The notes below the pieces were generated by a model. It saw only the letters and a program-made list of their open reading frames with translations, did not search any database and was not told the origin of the DNA. Source: an uncultured Bifidobacterium sp. (lineage in GTDB: Bacteria; Verrucomicrobiota; Verrucomicrobiia; Limisphaerales; JADLHS01). Taken from it: DNA of 64,000 nt. Numbering within the stretch: position 1 is the stretch's first letter; each line of letters opens with the position of its first letter. The stretch spans positions 267-64,266 of the forward strand of contig CAZKMR010000010.1 of assembly GCA_964553795.1 (NCBI GenBank), in the 5' to 3' direction. A program made the position numbers and the translations under genes. Below, piece after piece: positions 4,969 through 22,761 of the stretch.

Positions 4969-6369
4969 ATGAATCTGATCGAGTCATTGGAGCGAACCGC
5001 GGCGCGAGTGCCGCAAAAGGCGGCGTTAATCGAGGACGCCACGACGGTGACGTATGCGGAACTCTTGCAGCGGGTGAACAGTTTTGCGGATGGATTGCGG
5101 GCGCAACAGGTTTCGTCCGGGCAACGCATCGGGTTGGCGTTTCCGAATGGCGTGGCCTACGTGGCGCTGACGTATGCGTTGTGGCGTTGCGGCGTGGTGG
5201 TCGTGCCCGTGCCGACGGAATGTTCCGAAGACGAAATTCAGGAAATCATCGCCGCGATGCAGTTGCAGGGCATCGTGACGCCCAAGCCGCGCGGCGACAG
5301 CGTGTCGCTTGCGCCGGATGTTTTCTTCACGCGCCTCCAACCAACTGCTCCGCCCGATAATCACGGGCTTAATCTCGCGTTCATCCGGTTCACGTCCGGC
5401 ACAACGAGCGCGCGCAAGGGCGTGGCGTTGTCGCACGAAACGATTCGCGATCGCGTCGCTTCCGCAAATAAAGCGTTCGGCATCACGGCAGACGACACCA
5501 TCATCTGGTGTCTGCCGATGGCGCATCATTTTCTCATCACCATCGTGCTCTACATCGAAGTCGGCGCGACGATTGTGCTCGCACGGCACGTGACGGCGAA
5601 ACCGTTTCTCGAGGCGGTGAATCGCTGGAACGGCACGGTGCTTTACGCGGCGCCGTTTCATTACTCGATGTTGGCGCGGGACAATTCCGGCGCGCAAATT
5701 CCCTCGGTGCGATTGGCGGTTTCGACCACGTGCGCTTTGCCCGAGAACGTGGCGCAGGATTTTCTGAAACGCTTCAATCTCCCGCTTGTGCAGGCGTTGG
5801 GCGTGATTGAACTTGGCTTAGTCGCATTGAACACCGGCGATCCGCGCGGGCGTTGGAATTCTGTTGGGCGCGCGGCGGGCGACTTTGAGTTGCGCATTGA
5901 GAAGCCGGATGCGGAAGGATGCGGCGAATTGGCCGTGCGCGGGCCAGGAATTTGCGATGCGTATGTCGCGCCGTGGGTAGCGCGCGAACAGATTTTGCGC
6001 GATGGCTGGTTCTTCACCGGCGACATCGGGCGCTTCGATGCGGACGGATTTTTGCATCTGCTCTCACGCAAGACGGCAGTGATCAATCTGGCCGGGCGCA
6101 AAGTTTTCCCCGAGGAAATTGAAAGCGTGTTGAATCAACATCCCGATGTCCGCGAGTCGCGCGTGTTCGGCACGACACATCCGCACCTCGGCGAAGTGGT
6201 GGAAGCCGAATTGGTGATGGCGCAACCGGACGCGAAGTTGGATTCCGTGCGCGCGTATTGCCGCGATCACCTGGCGTCCTACAAAATTCCGATGCGCTTT
6301 CACATCGTCGCCGCCTTGCCTCGCACGCCGGTTACCGGCAAAATCCGCCGCGCCGCTCCGGTGGCTTGA
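4969..6369 (+). CDS. Acyl-AMP/acyl-CoA ligase (class I adenylate-forming enzyme)
   Basis: In frame with track ORF 4921..6369. Likely start is MNLIESLERTAARVPQKAALI. AMP-binding core FTSGTTSARKGVALSHE, then a later GWFFTGDIGRFDADGFLHLLSRK motif and a C-terminal PRTPVTGKIRR. The ACP gene starts 6 nt downstream. Confidence 0.85.
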   Translation: MNLIESLERTAARVPQKAALIEDATTVTYAELLQRVNSFADGLRAQQVSSGQRIGLAFPNGVAYVALTYALWRCGVVVVPVPTECSEDEIQEIIAAMQLQGIVTPKPRGDSVSLAPDVFFTRLQPTAPPDNHGLNLAFIRFTSGTTSARKGVALSHETIRDRVASANKAFGITADDTIIWCLPMAHHFLITIVLYIEVGATIVLARHVTAKPFLEAVNRWNGTVLYAAPFHYSMLARDNSGAQIPSVRLAVSTTCALPENVAQDFLKRFNLPLVQALGVIELGLVALNTGDPRGRWNSVGRAAGDFELRIEKPDAEGCGELAVRGPGICDAYVAPWVAREQILRDGWFFTGDIGRFDADGFLHLLSRKTAVINLAGRKVFPEEIESVLNQHPDVRESRVFGTTHPHLGEVVEAELVMAQPDAKLDSVRAYCRDHLASYKIPMRFHIVAALPRTPVTGKIRRAAPVA

Positions 6370-6374
6370 AACGA

Positions 6375-6629
6375 ATGATTGCCGCAGCCGAAATTGAAAC
6401 GAAACTCATCGACTTCCTGAAACGCGAAGTGTTCGCGCCGGATGTCGCCGTCACGCCTGAAACCGATCTCGTCGCGGCGGGATTTGATTCCATGTCGCTC
6501 GTGCGGATGTTGGTCTTCATCGAAACCGACTACGGTTTTTGGATTCCCGAGAGCGAAATCACCGGCGATGCGCTGCAGAACGTTCGCACGCTCGCCGAGA
6601 CCATCGCGCGGTTGCTCAATGCCCGCTGA
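6375..6629 (+). CDS. Acyl carrier protein
   Basis: 84 aa, from the internal Met of track ORF 6258..6629. Phosphopantetheine attachment motif GFDSMSLV in a typical ACP helix II context. Confidence 0.85.
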   Translation: MIAAAEIETKLIDFLKREVFAPDVAVTPETDLVAAGFDSMSLVRMLVFIETDYGFWIPESEITGDALQNVRTLAETIARLLNAR

Positions 6630-7890
6630 CCTGCCACTGAACGGCTGCGATTACCTGATGCTGGGGTTTGATTACGAACTCCGTCGCAACGGTTACGCCG
6701 GAAATTCCTGCCAGATCATCCTCGAACTGGATCGCGTTATCGCTGCCGAGGCATTGCGCCAGCGGCTGGAAATGCTGGTGCAACGACATCCCAATTTACG
6801 TGCGCGGCCTGGGGGATTGTTCAAGACGAAGTGGAGACCGTTGCTGGCGGAGAGCGGGTTTCCCCGCGTCCGCGTTCACAAAAAGAACTTGGTTCACCTC
6901 GATCAACTTTGCGATCAACCGCTCGACGTGCGAAATGGCGAACTGTTCCGCTTCGATTTGATTGAAAAGGCGAACGGCGGAATGGACGTTGTGTTTACCT
7001 GGACGCACGCGTTGATGGACGCGCCGAGCGCGGAACATTTTCTCGCGGTCGTGGGGCGGGAGGATGTTGCGGTGCCGGCAGTCACACCGCCCGCACCAAG
7101 ACCAAAGAAGCCACTGAAGGAACGACTGCTGTTGGCACGCAAAAACGTCGAGCAGTTGACGGAGTTTTGCAAAGCCGCGCCACGCACGGTGGGCGTGCGA
7201 TTTCCGAATGCGCCGCGAACTCAGCGCTATCACATCGAAAAGTTTTCCGCCGAAGAAACGGCCCGCGTGCGCGCGAACGGTGTGAAGCTCTGCGGCGCAT
7301 TGGGTGATGCGCAATTTCACGCGGCGGTGGCGGTGATGGAATTGCATCGCTTGCATGAACGCGTCGGAAAACCGTCGCCGAGTTATGTGTTGCCCGTGCC
7401 GGTGAGCTTTCGGCCTAAAGGCACGGTCGAGCCGCTATTCAGCAATCAGGTGGCGATGCTGATGGTGCAATTTTTGCCCGAGCAACTTGCGACGACGAGC
7501 GCGGCGGTCGCCGTGCTCAAGACGCAACTGGCGCAGGCGTTGCGCGAGCGGCGTATTGAAGCCGGCGTGGCGATCACGGAACTGTCGCGCGGCATGCCTT
7601 TCCCGCTATATCTCTACGTGCTGAAGCATCATGGGTTGAAGGGTGAGATTTGCTCGTTCTTTTACGGCGACACCGCAAATGTCACGCCGCTGCTCAACAG
7701 CTTTTGTGGTGCGACGATTACCGACTTCGCGCATGTCGGCGCGACCACGCCATCGCCGGGCATTGGCGCGATCTTTTATTACTTCGCTGGCAAAATGCGC
7801 GTCACGGTTTTTCATTTGGAGACGCATTTCTCTCGTCACGAAGCAGCAGAATTCGCCTCGAATCTGCGGAAACGATTACTCGAACCGTGA
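6619..7890 (+). CDS. Condensation-domain-like acyltransferase (HxxxD family), paralog 1
   Basis: 423 aa from the internal ATG at 6619, which overlaps the ACP stop. FTWTHALMDAPSAEHF contains an HxxxD motif like those of NRPS C-domains, PapA5 and WS/DGAT. Full-length paralog of 14547..15818, with the same length. Confidence 0.7.
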   Translation: MPADLPLNGCDYLMLGFDYELRRNGYAGNSCQIILELDRVIAAEALRQRLEMLVQRHPNLRARPGGLFKTKWRPLLAESGFPRVRVHKKNLVHLDQLCDQPLDVRNGELFRFDLIEKANGGMDVVFTWTHALMDAPSAEHFLAVVGREDVAVPAVTPPAPRPKKPLKERLLLARKNVEQLTEFCKAAPRTVGVRFPNAPRTQRYHIEKFSAEETARVRANGVKLCGALGDAQFHAAVAVMELHRLHERVGKPSPSYVLPVPVSFRPKGTVEPLFSNQVAMLMVQFLPEQLATTSAAVAVLKTQLAQALRERRIEAGVAITELSRGMPFPLYLYVLKHHGLKGEICSFFYGDTANVTPLLNSFCGATITDFAHVGATTPSPGIGAIFYYFAGKMRVTVFHLETHFSRHEAAEFASNLRKRLLEP

Positions 7891-9035
7891 AATCGCACGT
7901 GGACATCGCGGTGGTCGGTGCGGGAGCGGCGGGAATCGCGGCAGCGGTGAGCGCGGCGCGTGCGGGGGCAAAGACGTTGCTGTTGGATGCGCGGTCGGCA
8001 GCAGGCGGCACGGGAGGCTTCAGCGGGTTGACGACGTTGTGTGGGTTGTACGATGACGCGGGGAATCTTTTGAATGACGGTTTTTCGCGGGAATTTGCCG
8101 AAGCGATTGCGGAGCGCCGGCCTCCGGCACGGCTCGATTCTAAGTCCGAGCCCCAACGCGCCGGGCCGGAGGCCGGCGCTCCGATCAGAATGGGCCGCGT
8201 CTGGGTGTTGCCGTATCGTCCGGAGAAATTTTGCGAAGTGGCAGCGCAGTTGATTTCAGCAACGGCGAATCTGACAACGCAATGGAGCACGCCGCTGGCG
8301 AATGTTCATTTGGAATCCGGTCGCATATCGCAACTCAATGATGTTTCGGTCGGTGCGGTGATTGATTGCAGCGGCACGGCCGAAGTAGCGCAGGCCGTCG
8401 GCGCGGAAACCCTGGCAACTGACGAATCAACTCAAGCATCTGCGGTCATCTTCACACTGCGCAATGTGCAGAAGCCGCTCGCGACCCCAGCGGACATGGC
8501 GCAAGTGTTGTTGCCGCTGGCGCGCGCAGGATTTCCAACGCTCAATCTTCAAGCCGGCATCGCCCCGGGAGAATTCACCGCGAAGTTCGCGGGAACTCCG
8601 GCGCAAGTGCCGGAGCTGATTTCTTTCTTGCGAGCAAATGTTGCCGGTTTTGAACAATGCGAAACGCCGCAGCGGGAATTCACCATCGCGCGCCGCGCCG
8701 GCAGGATGATTATTGGTCAATGTATCCTGACCGGCGCAGACGTTTTGGCGGGGCGAAAGTTTCCTGATGCGGTGGCGCGATGCGCCTGGCCCATCGAGCA
8801 ATGGGACAGCAAAGGTGTCGCGCGCTTCAAATATCTTCCGGCGGGGGCGCACTATGAAATTCCAGCGCGTTCGCTGCGCGCGGCGCGAGTGGAGAATTTG
8901 TTCATGGCCGGCAAAACCATCAGCGCGGACGTGGACGCGATTGCCAGCGCGCGGGTGATGGGCTGTTGTCTCGCCACTGGTGCGGCGGCTGGAGTTCTGG
9001 CGGCGGACTACGTAAACTCGGGCCGAACCAAGTGA
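7887..9035 (+). CDS. FAD-dependent oxidoreductase
   Basis: The GTG at 7887 overlaps the upstream stop (GTGA). Rossmann motif DIAVVGAGAAGIAAAVSAARAGAKTLLLD. C-terminal FMAGKTISADVDAIASARVMGCCLATGAAAG is typical of the FAD_oxidored-type family. Confidence 0.75.
   Translation: MKSHVDIAVVGAGAAGIAAAVSAARAGAKTLLLDARSAAGGTGGFSGLTTLCGLYDDAGNLLNDGFSREFAEAIAERRPPARLDSKSEPQRAGPEAGAPIRMGRVWVLPYRPEKFCEVAAQLISATANLTTQWSTPLANVHLESGRISQLNDVSVGAVIDCSGTAEVAQAVGAETLATDESTQASAVIFTLRNVQKPLATPADMAQVLLPLARAGFPTLNLQAGIAPGEFTAKFAGTPAQVPELISFLRANVAGFEQCETPQREFTIARRAGRMIIGQCILTGADVLAGRKFPDAVARCAWPIEQWDSKGVARFKYLPAGAHYEIPARSLRAARVENLFMAGKTISADVDAIASARVMGCCLATGAAAGVLAADYVNSGRTK
8111..8182. repeat. 72-bp perfect-armed palindromic element embedded in frame inside the FAD oxidoreductase CDS
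   Basis: GGAGCGCCGGCCTCCGG (8111-8127) is the exact reverse complement of CCGGAGGCCGGCGCTCC (8166-8182). There is an inner GGCTCG...CGAGCC stem. The right arm plus flank (GGCGCTCCGATCAG) matches the intergenic GGAGATCGGCGCTCCGAT family at 11552-11750 and 15916-15948. Confidence 0.7.
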
Positions 9036-10276
9036 CCAAACCGTTCGATCAACTTTGGGCTGAAACCTTTCGCCATGCGGCAGAACATTCGCCGTATTAT
9101 CGCGAATTGTTTCGCGACGCGAAGGACGTTCCACCGCTCGATTCCGTTCCCACCCTCGATAAGAAGATTTTGTCCGAGCGCAATCTGGATTTCCTCTGCG
9201 TCTCGCGTGATCGCATTGTTGAGATTGTGACAACGAGCGGAACGACGGGTCAGCCGCTGCTCTGGATGTTGACCGAGGCGGACCTGAAGCGGCTCGGAGT
9301 GAACGAGCAACTTTCCTTCGGCTGCGCCGGGCTCACGGCGCGGGACACGGTGCTCGTGGCGGTGGCGATGGATCGTTGTTTCATGGCGGGGTTGGCGTAT
9401 TGGCTGGGGCTGCGCGAAATCGGCTGTGGCGTGGTGCGAACCGGTGCGACGTCGCCGTTGCTGGTGCTGGAAATGATTCAACGCGCGCAACCAACCGCGA
9501 TTGTCGGTGTGCCGTCGTTCCTCCGCATCGTCTCCGACAAAGCGTGGGAAGCGGGCATTGACCTCAAGAAATCTTCGGTCAAAAAACTTGTCTGCATTGG
9601 CGAGCCGATTCGCGATGCTTCGTTCCAATTGAATCACTCGGGAGCGGTACTGGAATCGGCATGGGGCGCGAAGGTTTTTTCCACTTATGGCGTGACCGAA
9701 CTCGCCAATTCGCTTTGTGAATGTGAAGCCGGGCAGGGCGGCCATTTGCACGAGGAACAACTGCACATCGAAATTCTCGATGACGCCGGCCAGTCCGTAC
9801 CAGACAGCGAAGTAGGTGAAGTGGTGGCGACGACGTTTGGCGTCGAGGCAATGCCGGTGATTCGGTATCGCACGGGCGATTGTGCGGCGTTGTATCGCGG
9901 CAAATGTGTGTGCGGTCGCAGCACGCCTCGGCTGGGGCCGATCATCGGACGCAAGAATCAAAAGCTGAAGTTCAAAGGCACATCGCTATATCCGGCGACA
10001 CTTGCGGCGGTGCTCGAACAGGCGCCGGGCGTGGAGGCGTTTGTAATTCAGGCGCGGAAGGAAAGCGAGTTGTCCGACGCGGTTGAAGTGCTGGTGCATG
10101 GTTCAGCGCTCGTGGCGGAATTACGCGAACAGTTTCAGGCGCGGACCAAAATCGCGCCACAAATTCGCCATGCGACGCGGGAGGAAATCGAGTCGCTGCA
10201 AATGCCGCCGCAAGCGCGGAAACGGCGCACGTTTGTGGATTTGCGAAACGAAAGTTCACCCGGAGGAACGATGTGA
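9032..10276 (+). CDS. Phenylacetate-CoA ligase / coenzyme F390 synthetase-like adenylating enzyme
   Basis: The GTG at 9032 overlaps the upstream stop (GTGA). TTSGTTGQPL (adenylation core), YGVTE and RYRTGD motifs. About 414 aa, typical of the PaaK-like family. Confidence 0.75.
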   Translation: MTKPFDQLWAETFRHAAEHSPYYRELFRDAKDVPPLDSVPTLDKKILSERNLDFLCVSRDRIVEIVTTSGTTGQPLLWMLTEADLKRLGVNEQLSFGCAGLTARDTVLVAVAMDRCFMAGLAYWLGLREIGCGVVRTGATSPLLVLEMIQRAQPTAIVGVPSFLRIVSDKAWEAGIDLKKSSVKKLVCIGEPIRDASFQLNHSGAVLESAWGAKVFSTYGVTELANSLCECEAGQGGHLHEEQLHIEILDDAGQSVPDSEVGEVVATTFGVEAMPVIRYRTGDCAALYRGKCVCGRSTPRLGPIIGRKNQKLKFKGTSLYPATLAAVLEQAPGVEAFVIQARKESELSDAVEVLVHGSALVAELREQFQARTKIAPQIRHATREEIESLQMPPQARKRRTFVDLRNESSPGGTM

Positions 10277-10427: not shown

Positions 10428-11552
10428 ATGAAGCCGTGCATCGTCATTCCGTGCTACAACCACTCGGCGACTGTCGGCGCGGTGGCTCTGGCGGCGTTAG
10501 CGCATGCGCCGGTGATTGTGGTGGATGACGGCTCAACGGAAGCGTTGCCGGAGTTGCCGGGTTGCGACGTATTGCGCCTGGCGCGAAACAGCGGTAAGGC
10601 AACGGCATTGCGCGCAGGATTTGCGCGTGCGGTCGAGCGAGGATTCACGCACGCGATCACGATGGACGCGGACGGGCAGCACTTCGCAGAGGATTTACCA
10701 AAGTTTCTCGCGGCAGCGGAACAACAGCCAAACGCTTATCTCGTCGGCGTGCGCGATTTGGTGGCAGCGGGTTGTCCGAAACATCGGCAACGCTCGAATC
10801 GCATTTCGACGTTCTGGTATCGTGTGGAAACGGGCGTGCGGATTCGCGATACGCAATGCGGCTTTCGTTGTTACCCGCTGGCGCTGGTGCAGCGACTCAA
10901 GATCAATTCCAATCGCTACGCCTACGAATTGGAATTCATGGTGCGCGCGGCTTGGATCGGAACGCAGATTGTCGCCGTGCCGGTGAAATGCACGTACGCG
11001 CCGGGACAGGCGGGGGCATCGCATTTCCGGACCGTGCGGGATTTTTGCCACATCACGGGCATGAACATCCTGCTCGTGTTTCAATCGTGGCTCGTGCCGC
11101 AAACCGTGCGCATCGCGTGGTCGCAGGGACAACGCTGGGGTTTTCGGAAAACCGCGCGCGAATTTTTTACCGAACACGCTCACAGTCCCGGACGCATGGC
11201 ACTGGCGGTTGGACTGGGTTTATTTTTCGGCATCGTGCCAATCTGGGGTTTTCAAATGGCGGCGGCGGCGGCGAGCGCGCATTGGTTGCGGTTGAACAAA
11301 GCCATCGCGCTCTCGGCGAGCAACATTTCCATGCCTCTGATTGCGCCGTTTATCTTGTGGGGTGCAATGGTGCTGGGACATTGGATGTTCACGGGCGAGA
11401 TTTTGCAACTGACGCGTGAGCAAATGGAGCAATCATCCGTGCGCGAATTTTTACCGCGGTTTTTGGCGGGTAGCGTGGTGTTGGCGATGATTGTGTCGGT
11501 GCTCGGAACGATGATCACCTACGTCATCGCGTGGTTCGTGAAGCGGAAGTAG
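10428..11552 (+). CDS. Family 2 glycosyltransferase fused to a DUF2062-type membrane domain
   Basis: 374 aa. GT2 N-terminus CIVIPCYNHSATV ... VIVVDDGSTE ... MDADGQH. The C-terminal approx 130 aa are polytopic and hydrophobic (GLGLFFGIVPIWGFQM...), as in DUF2062. Confidence 0.8.
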   Translation: MKPCIVIPCYNHSATVGAVALAALAHAPVIVVDDGSTEALPELPGCDVLRLARNSGKATALRAGFARAVERGFTHAITMDADGQHFAEDLPKFLAAAEQQPNAYLVGVRDLVAAGCPKHRQRSNRISTFWYRVETGVRIRDTQCGFRCYPLALVQRLKINSNRYAYELEFMVRAAWIGTQIVAVPVKCTYAPGQAGASHFRTVRDFCHITGMNILLVFQSWLVPQTVRIAWSQGQRWGFRKTAREFFTEHAHSPGRMALAVGLGLFFGIVPIWGFQMAAAAASAHWLRLNKAIALSASNISMPLIAPFILWGAMVLGHWMFTGEILQLTREQMEQSSVREFLPRFLAGSVVLAMIVSVLGTMITYVIAWFVKRK

Positions 11553-11750
11553 CTGGAGCGCCGATCTCCAGATCGGCCAGTTTCGTAGGATAACAGTGAT
11601 TGCCGAATTCGATATCGAATCCAACCCACCCCTAACCCCTCCCGGGAGGGGAACGTGATTGCGAGTGCTTTCGCGTTTTGCTCCCCTCTTGGGAGGGGCT
11701 GGGGGTGGGTTCAGCCACGAGCCGATCAGGAGATCGGCGCTCCGATCAGC
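11552..11750. repeat. Nested inverted repeats filling the gap between convergent genes (possible bidirectional terminator or REP cluster)
   Basis: The outer pair is GGAGCGCCGATCTCCAGATCGGC (left) and GCCGATCAGGAGATCGGCGCTCC (right), each itself a hairpin (GCCGATC-nnnn-GATCGGC). The inner pair is AACCCACCCCTAACCCCTCCCGGGAGGGG and CTCCCCTCTTGGGAGGGGCTGGGGGTGGGTT. Confidence 0.7.
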
Positions 11751-13053
11751 GAATCATCAATTCCTTCGGATCGCGTTTGCTGAGGCCGTGATTTACGACG
11801 AAACGCAGCAGGCCGAGGCTGTAACGGGAATTTGATGCGGCGCCGGTGAAGATTTTTCCGAAGTGATTGCTCATGTGCGGCATCATCAATCGGAAGATAA
11901 AATACTTCTCCACCATCATCTGGCCGACGACGACGGAGTTGAACAAGCTGCCGCTGTAAAAATAATCCACGATTTCGTGCCAGCATTTCAGGTGATGAAT
12001 GGTTTCCTCTTGGTAGTGTTGAAACCCGCGGGCCGTGCCCTTGCGAATCGCCTTTGCCAACTCGACGGCGCCTTGCATGCCGATGAGCAAACCGCTGGAG
12101 AACACGGGATCAATGAAGCCCGCCGTGTCGCCAACCAAAGCCCAACCGTCACCAACGGTGCGATCCGAAACGAGTTGGTAATTGGAGTATTCCATCACGG
12201 GCGTGAGTCGTTTGGCGTCGCCAGCGACCTGTTTCAAAACGGAATCCTGGCGCAGCAGATTGTCGAAACGTTCTTCCTTCGTCGCGCCGTATTTCGGTAG
12301 ATGCTCCGTGCCGATAACCATGCCGACGGACACACGCCCTTGCAGCGGAATGCGCCAACTCCAGCCGTGGTCCATGCGCGTGGTATGAACGTGGCCTTCA
12401 TAATCGAGTTTGGTTCGATCCACGTGGGCAAAGAGCGCGGTGTCTTTACGCCCGCCTTCGCGACTGGGAATGTTCAGAGCATTTGGTAACAGGCGAATGC
12501 GTCCCGTAGCATCCACGATGAAATCCGGAGCACCGGGAAAATGTTGATTCCAGAGCGCCAGGGTTTCGCGGGAGAGTTGCACGCGATCCGTGCCGGGATT
12601 GGCTTCGACGGCTGCGGGTGACTCGATAATTCTCGTGCCCGCCTTCCGCGCGGCGTTGAGCAGCGTTTCGTCAAATTTGTCGCGGGGAACATTGTAGGCG
12701 TAACCGGGCAGCGGACCGCGGATGTTGGAAAACGGGAACGAGAGATTGATTTCTTCCGTGAGATTGATGGTTGCACCGGGTTTGTAGAGTCCGTAAGTGC
12801 GAACTTCATCTTCGACGCCGAGCGTTCGCAAAATGGGAATGATGGCGGGCACGAGCGATTCGCCAACGAGCAACGGTGCTTGGCGCGAGCGATGAAAAAT
12901 CGCGACCTGGATGCCATCGCGGGCGAGTAGCGTTGCGAGCGTGCTCGCCGCCGGTCCGCCGCCGAGAATAGCGACGGTTTTGATCTGGCGATCACGACCA
13001 ATAAATTTGCGCGCGTCGGGGTGGATGATGTCGTTCGGCTGATTGTTCTTCAT
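11746..13053 (-). CDS. Flavin-dependent halogenase-type oxidoreductase, paralog 1
   Basis: 435 aa. GxGxxG motif ILGGGPAAS. Contains the halogenase hallmark WxWxIP as GWSWRIPL, and a conserved Lys in YKPGATINL. Confidence 0.8.
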   Translation of the reverse strand: MKNNQPNDIIHPDARKFIGRDRQIKTVAILGGGPAASTLATLLARDGIQVAIFHRSRQAPLLVGESLVPAIIPILRTLGVEDEVRTYGLYKPGATINLTEEINLSFPFSNIRGPLPGYAYNVPRDKFDETLLNAARKAGTRIIESPAAVEANPGTDRVQLSRETLALWNQHFPGAPDFIVDATGRIRLLPNALNIPSREGGRKDTALFAHVDRTKLDYEGHVHTTRMDHGWSWRIPLQGRVSVGMVIGTEHLPKYGATKEERFDNLLRQDSVLKQVAGDAKRLTPVMEYSNYQLVSDRTVGDGWALVGDTAGFIDPVFSSGLLIGMQGAVELAKAIRKGTARGFQHYQEETIHHLKCWHEIVDYFYSGSLFNSVVVGQMMVEKYFIFRLMMPHMSNHFGKIFTGAASNSRYSLGLLRFVVNHGLSKRDPKELMIR

Positions 13054-13241
13054 CAGGGCGGATTCAGGTTAGAAGCCAACCCGGATGATGGCAATGGCAG
13101 TTCCAGCGTGTATGTCTCGCGACCGGAAATCCGCTTGAGTGCGTCCGAGTGCATTTTAGAATAGCAGCGCTTGCCGAACTCAGAAGTAATCGCTGTGATC
13201 GACGCGAACTCGGCAGCAAACCAAACTCAGATGCGTTACGC

Positions 13242-14507
13242 ATGAGCAGTTTGAACGGGCACACCAAGAAATATCAGAACATCGCGATTCTGGGCGGCGG
13301 GCCGGCGGCGAGTACGCTGGCGATTTTGTTGCGCCGCGCGGGTCGCGGCGTGGTGATGTTTCATCGCCCGAAGCAAGTCGCGCTCACGGTCGGCGAATCG
13401 CTCGTGCCGGCGATTGTCACGATGTTGCGGCAGTTGGGCGTGGAAGAAGAAGTGCGCGCGTTCAGCATGATGAAGCCTGGCGCGACGTTTAACATCACGC
13501 CGGAAGACCATTTTGCGTTCTGGTTCGAGCGGTTGCCGAAGAAGACGCCGCATTATTCCTACAACACGCCGCGCGATCAGTTTGATGAAACTATTCTGAA
13601 AGCCGCGCGTAAGGCAGGCGCGCACGTGGTCGAAGCGGCGGCGCAAGTAGAACGCGTGAATCAAACCGATCGCGTGCGATTGACGGGAGATTCGCTGGTC
13701 GCGTGGAATCAGTTTTTTTCAGGCGAACCGGAATTGATTGTGGATGCAACAGGGCGGGCGCGAGTGATTCCGGGCTTGTTGAATTTGCCGAGTCACACGG
13801 GGCCGCGGAAAGACACGGCGCTCTTTGCGCACGTGGACAAAGCAAATCTTGATCATGAAGGTCACGTACACACGACGCGCATGAATCACGGCTGGAGCTG
13901 GCAGATTCCGCTGCCGAATCGCGTGTCGGTGGGATTGGTCGTCGGATCGGAATTTCTTGCGCCGTTCGGAGCAACGAAAGAGGAACGCTACGACAATTGG
14001 CTCAAACAAGATCCGATGTTGAAACGCGTGACGGGCGAATCCAGACGCGTAACCCCGGTGCTGGAATACTCCAATTACCAGCTCGTGTCGGATCGCATGG
14101 TGGGGGACGGCTGGGTGCTGGTGGGCGATACGGCGGGGTTTGTGGACCCGGTTTTTTCGAGCGGCCTGTTGATCGGAATGTATGGCGCGATGAAATTGTG
14201 CGACGCGATTCAGATGGGAACGGCGCGGGCGTTCGCGGATTATGAACGCGAGATGAAGGAGCAACTCAACATTTGGCAGGAGATCGTGGACTATTTTTAC
14301 AACGGACGACTGTTCACTTTTTTCCGCGCGGGTGAGCGATTGAAAGACAATGTTTTCATCAAGCTGACGCGCCCGCATCTGGTGGCGAATCTCGGCGGCA
14401 TTTTCAGCGGGGCGGCTTCGACGTCGGCGTATTCGACCGGGCTGTTGCGCTTTTTGATGAAACACGCGTTGCGCGATGAAGACCCGGCGGAGTTGGCGGT
14501 GCGTTAA
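13242..14507 (+). CDS. Flavin-dependent halogenase-type oxidoreductase, paralog 2
   Basis: 421 aa from the internal ATG of track ORF 13149..14507 (MSSLNGHTKKYQNIAILGGGPAAS). WxWxIP motif as GWSWQIPL (nt 13893-13910) and Lys in MKPGATFNI. Collinear similarity to 11746..13053 throughout. Confidence 0.8.
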   Translation: MSSLNGHTKKYQNIAILGGGPAASTLAILLRRAGRGVVMFHRPKQVALTVGESLVPAIVTMLRQLGVEEEVRAFSMMKPGATFNITPEDHFAFWFERLPKKTPHYSYNTPRDQFDETILKAARKAGAHVVEAAAQVERVNQTDRVRLTGDSLVAWNQFFSGEPELIVDATGRARVIPGLLNLPSHTGPRKDTALFAHVDKANLDHEGHVHTTRMNHGWSWQIPLPNRVSVGLVVGSEFLAPFGATKEERYDNWLKQDPMLKRVTGESRRVTPVLEYSNYQLVSDRMVGDGWVLVGDTAGFVDPVFSSGLLIGMYGAMKLCDAIQMGTARAFADYEREMKEQLNIWQEIVDYFYNGRLFTFFRAGERLKDNVFIKLTRPHLVANLGGIFSGAASTSAYSTGLLRFLMKHALRDEDPAELAVR

Positions 14508-14546
14508 TTTGGAGTAAATGAATTTCATGATGAGGAGTTATCCCCG

Positions 14547-15818
14547 ATGAGCAGTGTCTGGCCGCAGAATGGCTGCGATTATTTGATGCGGAGTTTTGAC
14601 TGGGAATTGCGCCGGCACGGTTATGCGGGCAATTCGTGTCAGATCATCCTCGAACTGGCCGCACCCATTCAACCCGAGGCGTTGCGCGCACGGTTGAAGA
14701 TGTTGGCGGAGCGATATCCGATTTTGAATGCGCGTTCTGCGGGAGTTTTTCGACGGCGTTGGAAATTGCCGAGTGGTGAGGTCAAACCGCCTCAAGTCCG
14801 TGTGCATCCGGATGCGCCCGAGTTGATGCAACGACTCGTCAACGAAGGGCTCGCTTCGGATAACGGCGAGTTGATGCGTTTTGATTTGATCGAGTGCGGC
14901 GCTGGGCGAATGAAAGTGTTGTTTACCTGGGCGCACGCATTGATGGATGCGCATAGCGCGGAACACTTCATCGGCGTAGTGGGACGCGAGGATTTGGCGT
15001 TGCCGGCGACGGAATATCAACCGCCGGCGGGACCGCGTTTGCCGTTCAAGGAGCGGAGTCGTCGTGCGCTGAAAAACTTTCAGGCGTACAATCAATTCCG
15101 CAATCAAGCGCCGCGTTCGCCGGGAGTGCGACATGCGAATGCGCCCGCGATTTTGCAACATCGCGTGGAGTTATTCACCGCAGTGGAAACGGCGCAGGTG
15201 CGGGCGAATGCGCGCAAACATGCCGGGGCGTTGGGCGAAGCGCAATTTCACGCGGCGGTTTCTATTTTGGAAGTGCATGAACTGCACAAGCGGATTGGGT
15301 GCGTGAGTCCGAGTTATTTGTTGCCCGTGCCGGTGGGCTTGCGACCCAAGGGCAATGTTGAGCCGCTGTTCAGCAATCAGGTGACGATGTTGTTGTTGCA
15401 GTTTTTGCCGGAGCATCTGACGGACATGGCGAAAACCATCGCGCACTTGAAGACGCAGACCAGTCAAGCGATGCGAGACGGCGTGGTGGATGGCGGGGTG
15501 ATGTTTTTGGAAATGCTGCGCGTGTTGCCGCTGCCGGCGCATCAGGGCTTCACGAAGATGGGATTGAAAGGTGAGGTGTGTTCGATTTTTTACGGCAACA
15601 CAGCGGCGGTGAGTGCGGTGGTGACAAAGTTTCTTGGGGTGGAGATTGTGGATTTCACGCATATCGCGGCGGTGCCGCCGTCGCCGGGCATGGGAGTGAT
15701 TTTTTACAACTTTCGTGGCTTGCTGCGCGTGACGATTTTGCATCTGGCGAAGACGTTGAACGAAGCGGAGGCGGCGGATTTTGCGGCGGGATTGCGGCGG
15801 CGGCTGTTGGGAGGATGA
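14547..15818 (+). CDS. Condensation-domain-like acyltransferase (HxxxD family), paralog 2
   Basis: 423 aa. FTWAHALMDAHSAEHF. Shares long identical blocks with 6619..7890: NGCDYLM, GYAGNSCQIILEL, EPLFSNQV, PSPG.G.IFY. Confidence 0.7.
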   Translation: MSSVWPQNGCDYLMRSFDWELRRHGYAGNSCQIILELAAPIQPEALRARLKMLAERYPILNARSAGVFRRRWKLPSGEVKPPQVRVHPDAPELMQRLVNEGLASDNGELMRFDLIECGAGRMKVLFTWAHALMDAHSAEHFIGVVGREDLALPATEYQPPAGPRLPFKERSRRALKNFQAYNQFRNQAPRSPGVRHANAPAILQHRVELFTAVETAQVRANARKHAGALGEAQFHAAVSILEVHELHKRIGCVSPSYLLPVPVGLRPKGNVEPLFSNQVTMLLLQFLPEHLTDMAKTIAHLKTQTSQAMRDGVVDGGVMFLEMLRVLPLPAHQGFTKMGLKGEVCSIFYGNTAAVSAVVTKFLGVEIVDFTHIAAVPPSPGMGVIFYNFRGLLRVTILHLAKTLNEAEAADFAAGLRRRLLGG

Positions 15819-15915
15819 GGAACGCGGAGGCGCAGAGGACGCGGAGAGGCACGGAGGCATTCGGCGATCCATATTCAATTTTCATTCGGCTGCGTTTCTT
15901 CGTGATTCAGATTCA

Positions 15916-15948
15916 GGCCGATTCGGAGATCGGCGCTCCGATTGCAGG
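15916..15948. repeat. Copy of the GGAGATCGGCGCTCCGAT hairpin element, preceded by degenerate CRCRGAGG tandem repeats (15823-15858)
   Basis: GGCCGATTCGGAGATCGGCGCTCCGATTGCAGG closely matches 11721-11750. Just after the stop at 15818 lies ACGCGGAGG CGCAGAGG ACGCGGAGAGG CACGGAGG. Confidence 0.65.
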
Positions 15949-16054
15949 AACGGAAGCGACTGGTTTTCGCGCTTGGCTTCGCTAAACTTCGCGGGCCGAA
16001 CATGACGGAACTTTCTGCAACTGGCCTCGCTTGGGAGGCAACGCGCGCGAAGCG

Positions 16055-19000
16055 ATGAACTTCGATCTCTACTCGCGCTTGTATCTCTGGCTCGTGGCGC
16101 ATCGGCGGCTCACGTTGTTCCTCACGCTCGTCGTCACGTTGGTTTGCACCGTGGTGTCGCTGCAAATCCGCACCAAGGAAGACATGCTCGACATGTTGCC
16201 GAGCGGCGATGAGCGCGTGGAGGAGTATCGCTACGCGTTGCGTAAATTCCGGCAGATTGACCGCGTTTACATGGACATCGGTATCAATCGCGATGATCCG
16301 GAAACGTTGGCGCGCGCGGCGGATGCGATGTACGAACGGCTCGCGACGAACAGCGCGTTTGGGCGAATTCAATATCGCGTCGAGATGGGCAACCAGGATC
16401 AGATCGTGAGTTATCTGACCGGCGCATTGCCAAATCTTTTCACGGCAGAAGACGCGCGGGAATTGGAAGCGAAGCTTCAGCCGGAGGAAGTGCGGGATTA
16501 TCTCACCACGATGCGGCGCAAGTTGGCCGGGCCGGAAGGCATGGTGCTGAAGAATGTGATCGAAGCCGATCCGATTGGCAGCAGTGGGTTGGTGGTGAAG
16601 AAAGTGTTGCCGTTGCAGGCGGGTTTTGGCGGCGCGGAGATTGTGGAAGGTCGCATCACGAGTAGCGACGGGCGGCACGTGTTGATGTTGGCCGAACCAA
16701 AATTTCCATCGTCGGATTCGGGCGCGAGCGCGGAATTGGTGCGCGAGATGGTGCGCGCGGCGCGTGACGTGGAGCAGCAATTTCCCGGGGTGCATGTCGC
16801 CATCACGGGCGGGCATCGCATGTCGGTGGACAACGCGACGATCATCCGCGCCGATGCGCAACGCTGTATCGCGATCGGCATGGTGGCGATGATTGTTTTG
16901 TTCCTCTTCGCGTATCGGCGGCGTTGGTTGGCAATGGTGACGTTTCTGCCTTCCTTCTTTGGGACAACCGTCGCGGGCGTGATGTTGGCGATCTGGCACG
17001 ATCAACTTTCCGCGATTGCGCTGGGGTTTGCGTCCATCGCCGTGGGCATCACGGTGGATTACGCGATTCACGTCATCTATCACCTCGATGACGCTGGAGC
17101 AGCCGATCACCCGAAGCGCGCGAAGCATCTGACGCAATTGGTGTATCCGATTTCGGTGGGCGTGATTACGACGGTGGCGGCGTTCATGGTGATGCTGGCG
17201 TCGCCGATCAACGGTTACCGGCAACTTGGCATGCTGGGCACGGTGGGCGTGGTGTTCTCGGCGGCGTTTGCGTTGATTATTTTGCCGTTGCTGGTGCCGC
17301 CGGCGAAAGGCGGCAGCGTGGCGCCGTTGCGATTGACGGGATTGTGGGAACGCTTCTTCCAGTGGCAGGCGAAGCGTCGCGGCATCGTGGTGTTGATCGC
17401 GCTCGTGCTGACGCTGGTTGCGGTGTTCGGCGTGCGGCATCTGCGGTTCGAGGGCGACATCACGAAGATGAATGGCATCACCGATTCCACGCGTGCGGAT
17501 GAGGCGTTGATCAGTAAAACGTGGGGCGACGCGGTGGGTATGACGTTGGTGGTCACGCGCGGCGAAACTCCGGCGGAAGCGCTGGCGCAGAATGATCGCT
17601 TGGCGGCGGCGTTGGCGGGGAACACGAACGTGACGGCGGTATATTCGTTGGCGGCGATTTGTCCCGCGCCGGAAACACAGCGCGAAAACATGCAACGCTG
17701 GCGCGAGTTTTGGACGGTAGAGCGGCGCGAGAATTTGCGGCAAACGCTGACGCAGGTCGCAGGCGAATTGGGTTTTCGTGCCGATGCATTTGCGAGGTTC
17801 TGGCAACAACTGGAGAGCGAACCGGAGTTGTTGACGCTGGAACAGTTTCGCGGCACGCCGTTGGAGAAAGCGCTTGATGAGCGGGTGGCATTGGCGGAAG
17901 GCGATAACGCGATCAGCACCGTCGTGCGATTGGCGGATCGAGCGCAGGCGGGACAACTGCGGGAGTTGGTGCCGGGCGCGATTGTTTTGGACGGAAAAGA
18001 TTTCGCCACGCATTTAGCGGCGATTGCGAAAGACGGACTGAAGGCGTTTGCCGTTGGGACGACGATTGCCGTCGGCATTTTGCTCGCGGTGTGTTTGGCG
18101 TCCCTCGAGCTGATGGCGGTAACGCTCGTGCCGATTGTCGTGGGCCTGCTGTGGACGTTCGGGGCAATGGCTTGGTTGGGGCTGCCGATTGATTTGATGA
18201 ACAGCATTTTTGTGATCTTCATCATTGGTGTGGGTGAGGATTACGCGGTGTTTCTGGTGACGAGTCGGTTGGATGAATGGCGCGGGCGCGCGAGTCATTC
18301 GGCGGTGGCCAGTGCGTCGGTGTTCGTGTCGGCGGCAACGACGATTTTTGGTTTCGGCGTGATGGTGTTGGCGGATCATCCGGTATTGTTTTCGATGGGC
18401 GCAACGGTGCTCATCGGGATGTTGTTCACGTTCGTGGCCACGCTACTGCTCACGCCGCTGTGCATGGACGTGTTGTTGTTCAATCCCATGCCGCGCGGCG
18501 CGCCGAAGTGGTGGCATGTGCTGGGCACAATCTGGGTGACGCTGCACCTGGGCGGGATTCAGGTTTATCTCTACACGGTGTTGCGACCGGTGCTGAAGTT
18601 GTTTCGCGTGCGCAACGGCGACGCTTTTCTGCGGGCGAGCGCGCGATATCTGGTGCGCGGTTTGATTAAAGCGATGCCCTTTGGACGAACGCGCTTGCAC
18701 GACATCACTCCGGAGACATTTAAGAAACCCTCAATCGTCATCAGCAATCATCAATCGGCGGTGGATACGTTATTGGTCAAAGGATTGCCCGGTGACGTGC
18801 GGCAAACGGCGAAAAAGCGCGTGTTCGATTCGCCGCTGTTGGGTTTCAGTTGCAAATATCTCGGTGAAGTGATGGTCGAGCCGAACAATCCGGAAGGCAC
18901 CTTGCAACGGGCGCGAGAAGTGTTGCGGAGCGGAGCGTCGGTGCATTTTTATCCGGAAGGCACGCGGTCGCTGGACGGCTCGGTGCAACGCTTTCGCCGG

Positions 19001-19885
19001 GGCGCGTTTGAACTGGCGGTGGAATTGAAGCAGGAGATTCTGCCGATTGTGATTTGCGATTCAAACACCGCGATGCCGCGTGATGCATTTTGGTTTGAGC
19101 CCTATCGCCTCACGATGCGGGCATTGCCGCGCATCACGCCGGAGAATTTCGACTATTCGCAAGGTGTCGGGCCGTTGATGAAACATTGCGAGGAGATTGT
19201 GCGCGCGGGCTTGCAGGCAGAAATGGATCGCCTCAACACGCCGGCTACTGTGCGGCGGAAGATTCGCCGGCTCTTTCGGTATCAAGGCGTGATGGTGGAA
19301 GAGTTCGTGAAATGGAAACTCAAACTTGATCCGGTGTTTTCGGTGTTGGATGAAGTTGTGCCGCGGCGGGCGCACGTTTTGGATCTCGGTTGCGGATACG
19401 GCTTGGCGACGCATTGGCTGGCGGCATTCACGGATACGCGAACGTTTGTCGGTTACGATTACGACGAAAATAAAATTCGCGTGGCGAAACGCACGGCGGC
19501 GGAGCAGCAGCGGATTCGCTTCGAGGCAGCGGACGTGTTGACGGCGGAGTATCCGGCGTGCGACGTGGTCTTGTTGTTGGACGTGTTGCATTACTGGACG
19601 GCGGAAAAGCAATTGCAGATGCTGACGAAGGCGCGGCAGGCATTGCGACCGGGTGGGCGATTGGTGTTGCGCGATGGCATTCGCGCGGAAACGGAAGCGC
19701 ATCAAAAGGTCTATCGTTGGGAACGGTTTGCCACGCGAGTGGGGATGAATCGCACGGTGGAAGGGTTGCATTTTCAGACGCAGGAAGAGTTGCAGACTTT
19801 GTTGCGGCAAGCGGGATTTGTGCGGTGGGAATTCAAGGCCGGGGCCGGCAAGGATTCGAACGTCATGCTGGTCGCATCTGCCTGA
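16055..19885 (+). CDS. Triple fusion: MMPL/RND-type 'predicted exporter' + PlsC-family (LPLAT) acyltransferase + class I SAM methyltransferase
   Basis: ATG at 16055, within track ORF 16031..19885. The N-terminal approx 800 aa carry two polytopic hydrophobic bundles separated by soluble loops. Next come the acyltransferase motifs SNHQSAVDTLL (HX4D) and FYPEGTRS. The C-terminus has the methyltransferase motif I VLDLGCGYGLATHWLA and LRPGGRLVLRD. Confidence 0.8.
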   Translation: MNFDLYSRLYLWLVAHRRLTLFLTLVVTLVCTVVSLQIRTKEDMLDMLPSGDERVEEYRYALRKFRQIDRVYMDIGINRDDPETLARAADAMYERLATNSAFGRIQYRVEMGNQDQIVSYLTGALPNLFTAEDARELEAKLQPEEVRDYLTTMRRKLAGPEGMVLKNVIEADPIGSSGLVVKKVLPLQAGFGGAEIVEGRITSSDGRHVLMLAEPKFPSSDSGASAELVREMVRAARDVEQQFPGVHVAITGGHRMSVDNATIIRADAQRCIAIGMVAMIVLFLFAYRRRWLAMVTFLPSFFGTTVAGVMLAIWHDQLSAIALGFASIAVGITVDYAIHVIYHLDDAGAADHPKRAKHLTQLVYPISVGVITTVAAFMVMLASPINGYRQLGMLGTVGVVFSAAFALIILPLLVPPAKGGSVAPLRLTGLWERFFQWQAKRRGIVVLIALVLTLVAVFGVRHLRFEGDITKMNGITDSTRADEALISKTWGDAVGMTLVVTRGETPAEALAQNDRLAAALAGNTNVTAVYSLAAICPAPETQRENMQRWREFWTVERRENLRQTLTQVAGELGFRADAFARFWQQLESEPELLTLEQFRGTPLEKALDERVALAEGDNAISTVVRLADRAQAGQLRELVPGAIVLDGKDFATHLAAIAKDGLKAFAVGTTIAVGILLAVCLASLELMAVTLVPIVVGLLWTFGAMAWLGLPIDLMNSIFVIFIIGVGEDYAVFLVTSRLDEWRGRASHSAVASASVFVSAATTIFGFGVMVLADHPVLFSMGATVLIGMLFTFVATLLLTPLCMDVLLFNPMPRGAPKWWHVLGTIWVTLHLGGIQVYLYTVLRPVLKLFRVRNGDAFLRASARYLVRGLIKAMPFGRTRLHDITPETFKKPSIVISNHQSAVDTLLVKGLPGDVRQTAKKRVFDSPLLGFSCKYLGEVMVEPNNPEGTLQRAREVLRSGASVHFYPEGTRSLDGSVQRFRRGAFELAVELKQEILPIVICDSNTAMPRDAFWFEPYRLTMRALPRITPENFDYSQGVGPLMKHCEEIVRAGLQAEMDRLNTPATVRRKIRRLFRYQGVMVEEFVKWKLKLDPVFSVLDEVVPRRAHVLDLGCGYGLATHWLAAFTDTRTFVGYDYDENKIRVAKRTAAEQQRIRFEAADVLTAEYPACDVVLLLDVLHYWTAEKQLQMLTKARQALRPGGRLVLRDGIRAETEAHQKVYRWERFATRVGMNRTVEGLHFQTQEELQTLLRQAGFVRWEFKAGAGKDSNVMLVASA

Positions 19886-22139: not shown

Positions 22140-22142
22140 GAC

Positions 22143-22760
22143 GTGAACCCGACGACAAACATGCTAAGGCGACTTGCGCGGCGTCAGTGGCTGGCGCCGG
22201 GGGCGGTGCTGCGGCAGGCCCTGGCAGTGGTCGTGGCGGCGCAATTCGCCGTGGCGGCGGCGCGAGCCAGCGAGGTGAACGCCGTCGAGTACGGCGTGAA
22301 AGGCGCCTTTCTGGTCAAGTTCGGCATGTTCGTCGAGTGGCCGACGGGAACTTTTTCCGAGACTCAATCGGTGTTCCGGATTGGCATCCTGGGGGACGAT
22401 CCGTTTGGACCGGAATTTGAAGCGGCGGCGCAAAAGGAAAAAATTGCGGGTCGGACCGTGGAGATTCGGCGCGGCCGACGACCGGAAGAACTGAAGGATT
22501 GCCAGATTGTCTTTCTCAGCGCCGCTGAATCGGCGCGGTTGGCCGAGTGGATTGCCGCGTTGGGGGAGAAAGGCATTTTGCTGGTGGCCGACGCACCGGA
22601 GTTTGTGGCGCGCGGCGGGATGATTGGGTTCATCAAAGAAGAGGGCAAGATTCGGTTTGAGATCAATCCGGCGGCGGCCGAGCGGGCCGGACTGAAGATC
22701 AGTTCAAAATTACTTCAGGTGGGCAAGCGCGTGAATCGCGTGGAGACGGTGGCAGGCTGA
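22143..22760 (+). CDS. YfiR-like DUF4154 periplasmic protein
   Basis: 205 aa. VEYGVKGAFLVKFGMFVEWP ... ILLVADAPEFVARGGMIGFIKEEGKIRFEINPAAAERAGLKISSKLLQVG matches the DUF4154/YfiR pattern end to end. Starts 3 nt after the receptor stop. Confidence 0.8.
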   Translation: MNPTTNMLRRLARRQWLAPGAVLRQALAVVVAAQFAVAAARASEVNAVEYGVKGAFLVKFGMFVEWPTGTFSETQSVFRIGILGDDPFGPEFEAAAQKEKIAGRTVEIRRGRRPEELKDCQIVFLSAAESARLAEWIAALGEKGILLVADAPEFVARGGMIGFIKEEGKIRFEINPAAAERAGLKISSKLLQVGKRVNRVETVAG

Positions 22761-22761
22761 T

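Follow-up and report, generated by a model that had tools for sequence, protein, structure and literature searches.

On the + strand of the window, a 64,000-nucleotide stretch of a metagenome-assembled genome (MAG) from the Verrucomicrobiota order Limisphaerales, a single gene joins an MMPL-type transporter, an acyltransferase and a methyltransferase in one protein of 1276 amino acids (aa). Judged by homology, domain order and neighbourhood, it is a Verrucomicrobial member of the known and widespread FlxU-type family, whose function has been named from its domains, and it sits in a variant operon. The gene and the parts of its product are the following, with transmembrane helices abbreviated as TM:

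16055..19885 (+): FlxU-type trifunctional protein, complete open reading frame (ORF) of 1276 aa plus stop; from the ORF, Pfam and homologues
16055..18532 (+): MMPL/RND (resistance-nodulation-division) transporter domain, residues 1-826, about 12 TM; from Pfam, HpnN structures and hydropathy
18509..18673 (+): pair of long helices (residues 819-849 and 855-873) that follow TM12 and precede the acyltransferase core; predicted in an AlphaFold2 (AF2) model
18722..19054 (+): PlsC/LPLAT acyltransferase core, residues 890-1000; from PF01553, 5KYM and invariant columns
19370..19819 (+): class I S-adenosylmethionine (SAM)-dependent methyltransferase, residues 1106-1255; from Pfam, solved-structure matches and Foldseek

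Reading frame and domains of the fusion protein

The original prediction, one polypeptide of 1276 aa with three intact domains, was borne out: the frame is unbroken, all three domains have Pfam matches, each above its curated cut-off, and the motifs that had been quoted were located at residues 898-904 (NHQSAVD), 965-972 (FYPEGTRS) and 1108-1116 (VLDLGCGYG). We take the ATG at 16055 as the start; a TTG at 16031 would add eight residues (1284 aa), but the ATG is favoured because homologue alignments begin at residue 1-4.

Stops or frameshifts in the raw reads at the two junctions, at about 18600 and 19300, had been named as the finding that would undo the fusion. These positions correspond to residues 848 and 1082, inside the two inter-domain linkers. 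A search against 5.8 billion proteins, with matches grouped at 90% identity, gave at least 120 clusters whose members are 1274-1319 aa long, match the same Pfam models and have 61-82% identity to the window protein; they were drawn from NCBI, JGI, ENA and Logan assemblies and labelled Verrucomicrobiota or Limisphaerales. Furthermore, we scanned 1.84 billion representatives (50% identity) exhaustively with HMMER and examined the best 150, of which about 119 were full-length proteins (1200-1305 aa) that aligned end to end at 24-45% identity. Of the 301 genomes examined from the window's order, 28 had a strong match, and 13 of these matches ran without a stop from residue 1-4 to residue 1273-1276, nearly the whole length. 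The invariant columns of two alignments took in the HX4D, EGR and methyltransferase motif I residues and the TM10 Asp as well as parts of the linkers, and all three sets of catalytic motifs persist in members with as little as 22% identity. Since the architecture is conserved in many independent clusters, a missed stop or frameshift is excluded, and on these comparisons the three-domain frame is genuine. A sequencing or assembly artefact masking stops or frameshifts between three separate genes has a negligible chance of being the explanation: no support for it was found in this MAG of 162 contigs and 87% completeness, and against it stand the unbroken architecture in clusters from four data sources and in RefSeq isolate genomes, the stop-free matches within the order and the conservation of linker residues.

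The N-terminal part has the two-bundle MMPL/RND layout that had been proposed for it. Pfam MMPL (PF03176) scores 78 bits against a cut-off of 20.5, in two stretches reaching about residue 826. Hydropathy, with overlapping windows merged, gave 11 clear hydrophobic segments and one weaker, in the 1+5 / 1+5 order of MMPL proteins, and two periplasmic domains lie at about residues 36-265 and 463-660. Asp-Tyr pairs, which form the proton relay in MmpL3 and HpnN, are found in TM4 (D335/Y336) and TM10 (D729/Y730), and the TM10 Asp is kept in all 125 three-domain representatives. The Pfam score, the 12-TM plan, the two periplasmic domains and the charged TM4 and TM10 residues together place this part in the MMPL/RND superfamily. 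Its nearest solved relatives are the HpnN structures 5KHN and 6WU0 (E 1e-15), with which it shares the 12-TM, two-periplasmic-domain plan, whereas HpnN itself has no cytoplasmic enzyme domains. An identity as the HpnN hopanoid transporter was rejected, with scores far below the cut-offs (TIGR03480, 133.5 vs 751.85; NF052374, 75.5 vs 1100), and so were BstA and ActII, again with scores far under their cut-offs. From the 12-TM topology the C-terminus would be cytoplasmic, which fits enzymes using SAM and acyl groups bound to coenzyme A (CoA) or an acyl carrier protein (ACP).

We modelled the C-terminal part of the fusion, residues 797-1276, and obtained a PlsC-like core, a helical linker and a Rossmann methyltransferase (predicted local distance difference test, pLDDT, 82.7; predicted template-modelling score, pTM, 0.71). 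The region after TM12 (residues ~820-850) is moderately hydrophobic and received no TM call by hydropathy; the two long helices predicted at 819-849 and 855-873 are read as PlsC-like membrane-interface helices. For the core, PF01553 matches residues 890-1000 with 75.7 bits against a cut-off of 23, and the nearest solved relative is the Thermotoga maritima PlsC 5KYM (E 1.5e-17, aligned from chain residue 78). The motifs are N898-H899-x4-D904 (HX4D) and P967-E968-G969-T970-R971 (EGTR at 968-971); HX4D is kept in 123 and EGR in about 120 of the 125 three-domain representatives. The catalytic dyad of HX4D and the acceptor motif EGTR, both on a PlsC fold, identify a PlsC/LPLAT acyltransferase. A narrower assignment to the 1-acyl-sn-glycerol-3-phosphate acyltransferase sub-family was not supported, as TIGR00530 scores 68.8, under its cut-off of 102.95; the automatic RefSeq/JGI label of that name, which the Verrucomicrobial proteins carry, is therefore not established, and we consider it too narrow.

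The methyltransferase is matched by Methyltransf_25/11/12/31 at residues 1106-1255 with 55-60 bits, and its motif I, D1110-x-G1112-C-G1114-x-G1116, is kept in about 110 of the 125 representatives. Its sequence matches to solved structures are phosphoethanolamine N-methyltransferases (PMT) and SibL, and its Foldseek matches are natural-product C- and O-methyltransferases (SibL, CysG, RedM, SgvM and DnrK).

Membership and history of the FlxU-type family

The three-way fusion had been thought undescribed, a view that has to be given up. RefSeq carries a 'trifunctional' product name for it, and in a 2026 taxonomic paper (PMC12968099) exactly this name stands for flexirubin gene U. In the supplement to Schöner et al. 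2014, FlxU (Cpin_1873) is described as an exporter with acyl- and methyltransferase domains, located between flxT, encoding a family 2 glycosyltransferase (GT2), and flxV, flxW and flxY; Cpin_1873 has a BLAST self-score of 2659 bits there, which fits about 1280 aa, and Fjoh_1078 is its 37%-identical counterpart. The window protein is linked to Cpin_1873 and Fjoh_1078 by description, through these two sources.

At the sequence level, 3637 proteins were recovered at E<=1e-80 when a distant member served as the query, among them RefSeq proteins of Bacteroides xylanisolvens, Parabacteroides, Alistipes and Acetobacteroides hydrogenigenes. BLASTP aligns residues 9-1254 of the window protein, each time in one collinear stretch and at about 25% identity, with RefSeq 'trifunctional'-named Bacteroidota proteins (WP_117885155.1, E 4e-130; WP_301062591.1, 3e-129; Acetobacteroides hydrogenigenes WP_131840288.1, 3e-142), and it is 33-36% identical to Planctomycetota/Brocadiaceae members. 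The RefSeq name, the listing as flexirubin gene U and this full-length homology show that the fusion is already catalogued. The window gene also has the other traits of the FlxU type, i.e. one ORF of ~1250-1300 aa with MMPL followed by PF01553 and a class I methyltransferase, a FlxT-type GT2/DUF2062 gene upstream, and FlxY- and FlxW-type genes in the cluster. The family extends over Bacteroidota (including gut Bacteroides), Planctomycetota and Verrucomicrobiota and has thousands of database members, so that the architecture itself is not new. It had been foreseen that it might prove common and annotated with a known function; common and annotated it is, but that function is not experimentally established, and we found no experimental study of any FlxU-type family member in the literature.

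Some searches recovered little of this breadth. A scan of genome contigs for the Chitinophaga and Flavobacterium FlxU returned close relatives and plain MMPLs only, the fusion was not found in the Flavobacterium MAG behind locus L003, and a profile search with a diverse alignment gave Verrucomicrobial matches only. No match at E<=1e-60 was found in 401 evenly drawn Bacteroidota genomes, though Bacteroidales homologues number in the thousands in the protein databases; the null looks like a limitation of search or sampling, not a biological absence. At the other extreme, a single 90%-identity cluster from gut Phocaeicola/Bacteroides holds 19,787 sequences. In this cluster (that of P0335), trifunctional proteins of 1284 aa stand beside 'phytoene desaturase family' (FlxV-like) proteins of 496 aa, probably because the neighbouring flxU and flxV of gut Phocaeicola were read through or merged in gene calling.

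In a FastTree phylogeny of the transporter part (155 sequences), with ApeM of the aryl-polyene (APE) pathway as a long-branch outgroup, all fused forms fell into one clade of 147 rows (Shimodaira-Hasegawa-like support 94), sister to unfused MMPLs of other Verrucomicrobiota classes. Near these closest unfused transporters, at a distance of 4-6 kb, there is an independent PlsC-like gene. MMPL-methyltransferase two-domain proteins (1002-1056 aa, Pfam-confirmed) are nested within the fused clade at least six times, which indicates repeated loss of the acyltransferase domain. One clade of 85 rows (support 100) has three-domain forms only, Bacteroidales proteins included. Domain order and linker lengths are rigidly kept across three phyla at 22-35% identity.

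Two loci illustrate the two-domain form. L052 (7505-10663, -) and L053 (7540-10680, -), both from the window's taxonomic order, encode MMPL-methyltransferase relatives of 1047-1053 aa, 38-40% identical to the window protein and without the acyltransferase. FlxY and FlxT are present in their flanks, with no fatty-acyl ligase, ACP or condensation gene, and downstream of one of them lie genes for a tyrosine/histidine ammonia-lyase, an LpxL-like acyltransferase and a ketosynthase. Presence of the acyltransferase domain may go together with that of the ligase-ACP-condensation set, as seen at one informative locus. A third locus, L054 (G444:C23, 2722-11171), belongs to a 2.6-Mb genome in the window's order (GTDB) and carries a Bacteroidales-like flxT-U-V-W-Y block, whose fusion shares 41-42% identity with Bacteroidales proteins and only 24% with that of the window; this block could be a horizontal transfer or a mis-binned contig.

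The variant operon and the second half of the cluster

Upstream of the fusion gene the window carries the following genes, of which the two halogenases and condensation-domain enzyme B form an insert; the last line gives a region of another contig of the same genome.

4969..6369 (+): fatty-acyl-AMP/CoA ligase, first gene of the conserved operon; AMP-binding 190 bits, NCBIfam long-chain fatty-acid ligases
6375..6629 (+): ACP, 84 aa, GFDSMS; PP-binding 30.8 bits, synteny
6619..7890 (+): free-standing condensation-domain (PapA5/AzeD-like) enzyme A, HxxxD (HALMD); weak PF00668 match, paralogue of the modelled enzyme B
7887..9035 (+): FAD-dependent oxidoreductase (PF12831), start approximate; Pfam, synteny
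8966..10276 (+): FlxY-like aryl/acyl-CoA ligase (PaaK/F390-synthetase type), start approximate; NF053551 FlxY_rubin
10428..11552 (+): FlxT-like GT2 glycosyltransferase fused to a DUF2062 membrane domain; Pfam, ApeJ similarity
11746..13053 (-): flavin-dependent halogenase 1, in the insert; Trp_halogenase
13242..14507 (+): flavin-dependent halogenase 2, ~60% identical to halogenase 1, in the insert; paralogy
14547..15818 (+): condensation-domain enzyme B, 53% identical to A, in the insert; AF2, Foldseek, profile search
25344-35890 of contig C34 (L048): second half of the cluster, from an LpxL-like acyltransferase to a free PlsC-like acyltransferase

We compared gene order by tblastn of the window genes against ten fusion-bearing Verrucomicrobial loci from several families. 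The order fatty-acyl ligase, ACP, condensation enzyme, PF12831 flavoprotein, FlxY-like, FlxT-like and fusion was identical in all ten, the fatty-acyl ligase being syntenic in 10/10. NF053551 FlxY_rubin matches the FlxY-like ligase with E 2e-129 and 432 bits, under its cut-off of 520. The condensation-type proteins (~420 aa) have an invariant HxxxD motif; single-sequence searches of the PDB and NCBIfam gave no match for them, and they were resolved by a profile search, which reaches 8S6L at E 1.3e-3, and by fold, the AF2 model of enzyme B (pTM 0.84) having a condensation-domain fold with Foldseek TM-scores of 0.74 to 8S6L and 0.55-0.70 to C domains of non-ribosomal peptide synthetases.

FlxT directly adjoins the fusion in nine related loci, the exception being the halogenase insert, 4.5 kb at 11553-16054, which places two divergently transcribed halogenases and condensation enzyme B between the two genes. 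Of the ten loci compared, only the window and an 82%-identical relative (L001) have these three inserted genes, and in locus L043 one halogenase lies at another place in the operon. The insert leaves a gap of 236 bp before the fusion, whereas the FlxT and fusion genes overlap in other loci. Downstream of the fusion, positions 20064-25215 encode a TonB-dependent receptor, a YfiR/HmsC-like periplasmic protein and a CHASE8-HAMP-PAS hybrid histidine kinase; the 82% relative has the kinase next to the fusion, with neither receptor nor YfiR-like gene between them.

No ketosynthase lies within the window. On contig C34 of the same genome, however, we found in order an LpxL-like acyltransferase, a hotdog protein, a ketosynthase, an 86-aa ORF (a possible second ACP), a ketosynthase fused to Ketoacyl-synt_2, a polysaccharide deacetylase, a LolA-like protein, a FlxW-like N-terminal nucleophile (Ntn) hydrolase and the free PlsC-like acyltransferase. 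In two genomes of other families (G549 and G669) this whole set comes immediately after the fusion and is oriented convergently to it, and the idea of an orphan cluster without ketosynthase was thus rejected: what looks ketosynthase-free is one half of a flexirubin/APE-type cluster split over two contigs. The FlxW-like gene of C34 and the FlxU-type gene each occur in 28 of the 301 genomes of the order, and 27 genomes have both.

Elsewhere the fusion is found inside complete flexirubin/APE-type clusters, on one metagenomic contig and in B. xylanisolvens, with FlxT only, or alone. Two stand-alone members, at L059 6328-10161 and L061 10001-13855, belong to the 85-row clade, namely P0210 (Paludibacteraceae) and P0176; within 10 kb they have no pigment-cluster genes, and the neighbours are a LytTR two-component pair for one of them and an AsnC regulator and a MatE gene for the other.

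Proposed coupling of acylation and methylation to export, and known systems

To relate the fusion to the better described APE pathway, we used the ape genes of the E. coli CFT073 cluster. The window protein aligns to ApeM at 21% identity (E 8e-11) and to ApeD at 22% (E 1e-10). ApeD matches the fused acyltransferase with E 6e-11 for the window protein and 1e-19 for the Bacteroides protein, and the free PlsC-like gene of C34 with 9e-5, so that by similarity score the fused domain is the best ApeD counterpart in the genome. The window GT2 is, at 40% identity (E 4e-46), orthologous to the N-terminal half of ApeJ. For the methyltransferase, an identity as ApeB was rejected: ApeB has PF21212 and PF00891 (Dimerisation2-like and Methyltransf_2), and the window protein matches it with E 0.002, a generic similarity. 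Indeed, the B. xylanisolvens cluster encodes a true ApeB orthologue (43% identity, E 2e-113) besides the fused methyltransferase, with no significant similarity between the two (E 1.2). As far as these comparisons reach, the fused methyltransferase is not the ApeB counterpart and has no counterpart in the proteobacterial cluster. The fusion can thus be described as an ApeM-like pump with an ApeD-equivalent acyltransferase and a methyltransferase absent from the proteobacterial cluster, and nothing in what is known of aryl-polyene lipid or flexirubin chemistry corresponds to this conserved methyltransferase.

We propose, with a probability of roughly 0.6, that the fusion, as the last gene of a lipid pathway of the flexirubin/aryl-polyene type, couples acylation and methylation to proton-driven export. 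At the cytoplasmic leaflet, the fused acyltransferase would transfer an ACP-bound acyl chain, plausibly loaded by the operon's own ligase and ACP, to a lysoglycerolipid-type acceptor, in the manner of ApeD. The fused methyltransferase, distinct from the ApeB ring methylase, would then methylate the same lipid or its head group, and the proton-driven MMPL domain would extract the finished lipid and pass it to a LolA-like periplasmic carrier for transfer to the outer membrane. The original prediction had argued from the fusion alone, by a Rosetta-stone argument, that all three activities meet on one lipid because they are separate genes in related clusters. For the acyltransferase and the exporter the argument holds: the separate PlsC-like gene near unfused transporters and the ApeD likeness of the fused domain make the link between acylation and export reasonable. 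It fails for the methyltransferase if this domain is equated with ApeB, given its distance from ApeB and the presence of both in B. xylanisolvens.

Several points weigh against this proposal. The similarity to ApeM and ApeD is low. The methyl acceptor is ambiguous, the sequence pointing to phosphoethanolamine N-methyltransferases and the fold to natural-product C/O-methyltransferases. Neither half of the cluster showed a tyrosine ammonia-lyase, a ketoreductase or an ApeB-type methyltransferase, and the product here may therefore not be an aryl polyene; likewise, the stand-alone P0176 and P0210 indicate that the family is not strictly tied to aryl-polyene chemistry. Substrates, order of reactions and direction of transport are all inferred.

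The fusion might instead provide co-localisation or a fixed stoichiometry, with the acyltransferase and methyltransferase acting on intermediates other than the transported species, for example ACP-bound chains or a head-group precursor, and without any hand-over. We consider this doubtful, though it has evidence on its side. The proteins of 1002-1056 aa left by the recurrent losses of the acyltransferase still adjoin FlxT and FlxY, and the transporter therefore does not need the acyltransferase in cis; in other classes of the phylum the two are separate genes. The rigid domain order and linker lengths at such low identity speak against it, and the pTM of the acyltransferase-methyltransferase model suggests a fixed mutual arrangement of the two enzymes.

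A role in lysolipid salvage or membrane remodelling like that of LplT/Aas, in which a lysolipid would be carried inward by the transporter and re-acylated by the PlsC-like domain, with a chain that the operon's ligase and ACP activate, for general envelope upkeep instead of specialised lipid export, seems to us unlikely. The acyltransferase region does weakly match the Aas model NF006386 (E 1.4e-9), the operon's acyl-AMP ligase and ACP would supply the two other Aas activities, and stand-alone copies exist in Bacteroidales-type genomes. However, the fusion co-occurs almost perfectly, and is adjacent, with ketosynthase, LolA-like and FlxW-like genes, it is part of complete flexirubin/APE-type clusters in Bacteroides and metagenomes, and its conserved methyltransferase has no role in a salvage cycle. 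Furthermore, characterised MMPL/HAE-type RND proteins transport lipids outward.

Returning to the proposal of acylation and methylation coupled to export, a more far-reaching version is speculative: the lipid would be finished at the mouth of the pump and exported without diffusing in the membrane, its anchor would bear a novel methyl group, and the product would be an undescribed halogenated acyl-glycolipid. The last idea comes from the fatty-acyl ligase, the ACP, the condensation enzymes and the two halogenases, together with the lack of a detected ammonia-lyase or ketoreductase. If true, the methyl would be a lipid-anchor modification absent from every aryl-polyene and flexirubin structure solved so far. 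We believe that the FlxU-type family offers a natural test case for lipid synthesis coupled to RND-type export.

Among known systems, the closest is flexirubin, whose FlxU has the same three domains in the same order and about the same length (~1280 aa) as the window fusion, and whose cluster, like the window genome, has a FlxT-type GT2/DUF2062 gene before the fusion, a FlxY-type ligase and a FlxW-type Ntn hydrolase. In contrast to the flexirubin cluster, no DarA/DarB, tyrosine ammonia-lyase or ketoreductase was seen here, and the ketosynthase half is on the other contig. The fatty-acyl ligase, the ACP, the one or two condensation enzymes and the PF12831 flavoprotein are extras of the window operon, not seen in the non-Verrucomicrobial fusion loci inspected, and appear to replace the FlxV-type phytoene-desaturase-like reductase.

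In Xenorhabdus, ApeD acylates the sn-2 position of lysophosphatidylglycerol, ApeJ attaches the sugar and chromophore, and ApeM exports the product with LolA/LolB-like partners (bioRxiv 10.1101/2020.12.19.423268, PMC8253772). ApeM, ApeD and ApeJ of E. coli CFT073 and Xenorhabdus doucetiae thus likewise combine an exporter, a lysophospholipid acyltransferase and a GT2 on one outer-membrane lipid, but these Proteobacteria encode them as separate genes, whereas pump and acyltransferase are fused here, and ApeJ has an extra C-terminal half without Pfam match where the window FlxT-like protein has DUF2062.

The window operon also follows the logic of the mycobacterial FadD-(Pks)-PapA-MmpL loci for phthiocerol dimycocerosate (PDIM), sulfolipid and polyacyltrehalose, which encode an acyl-AMP ligase, a carrier, a condensation-fold acyltransferase and an MMPL together. 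The likeness of its condensation enzymes to PapA5-type proteins is at the level of the fold only (profile E 1.3e-3). Unlike the mycobacterial loci, the window system has no modular polyketide synthase; it serves a Gram-negative envelope with a LolA-like carrier, and its exporter comes with PlsC and methyltransferase domains of its own.

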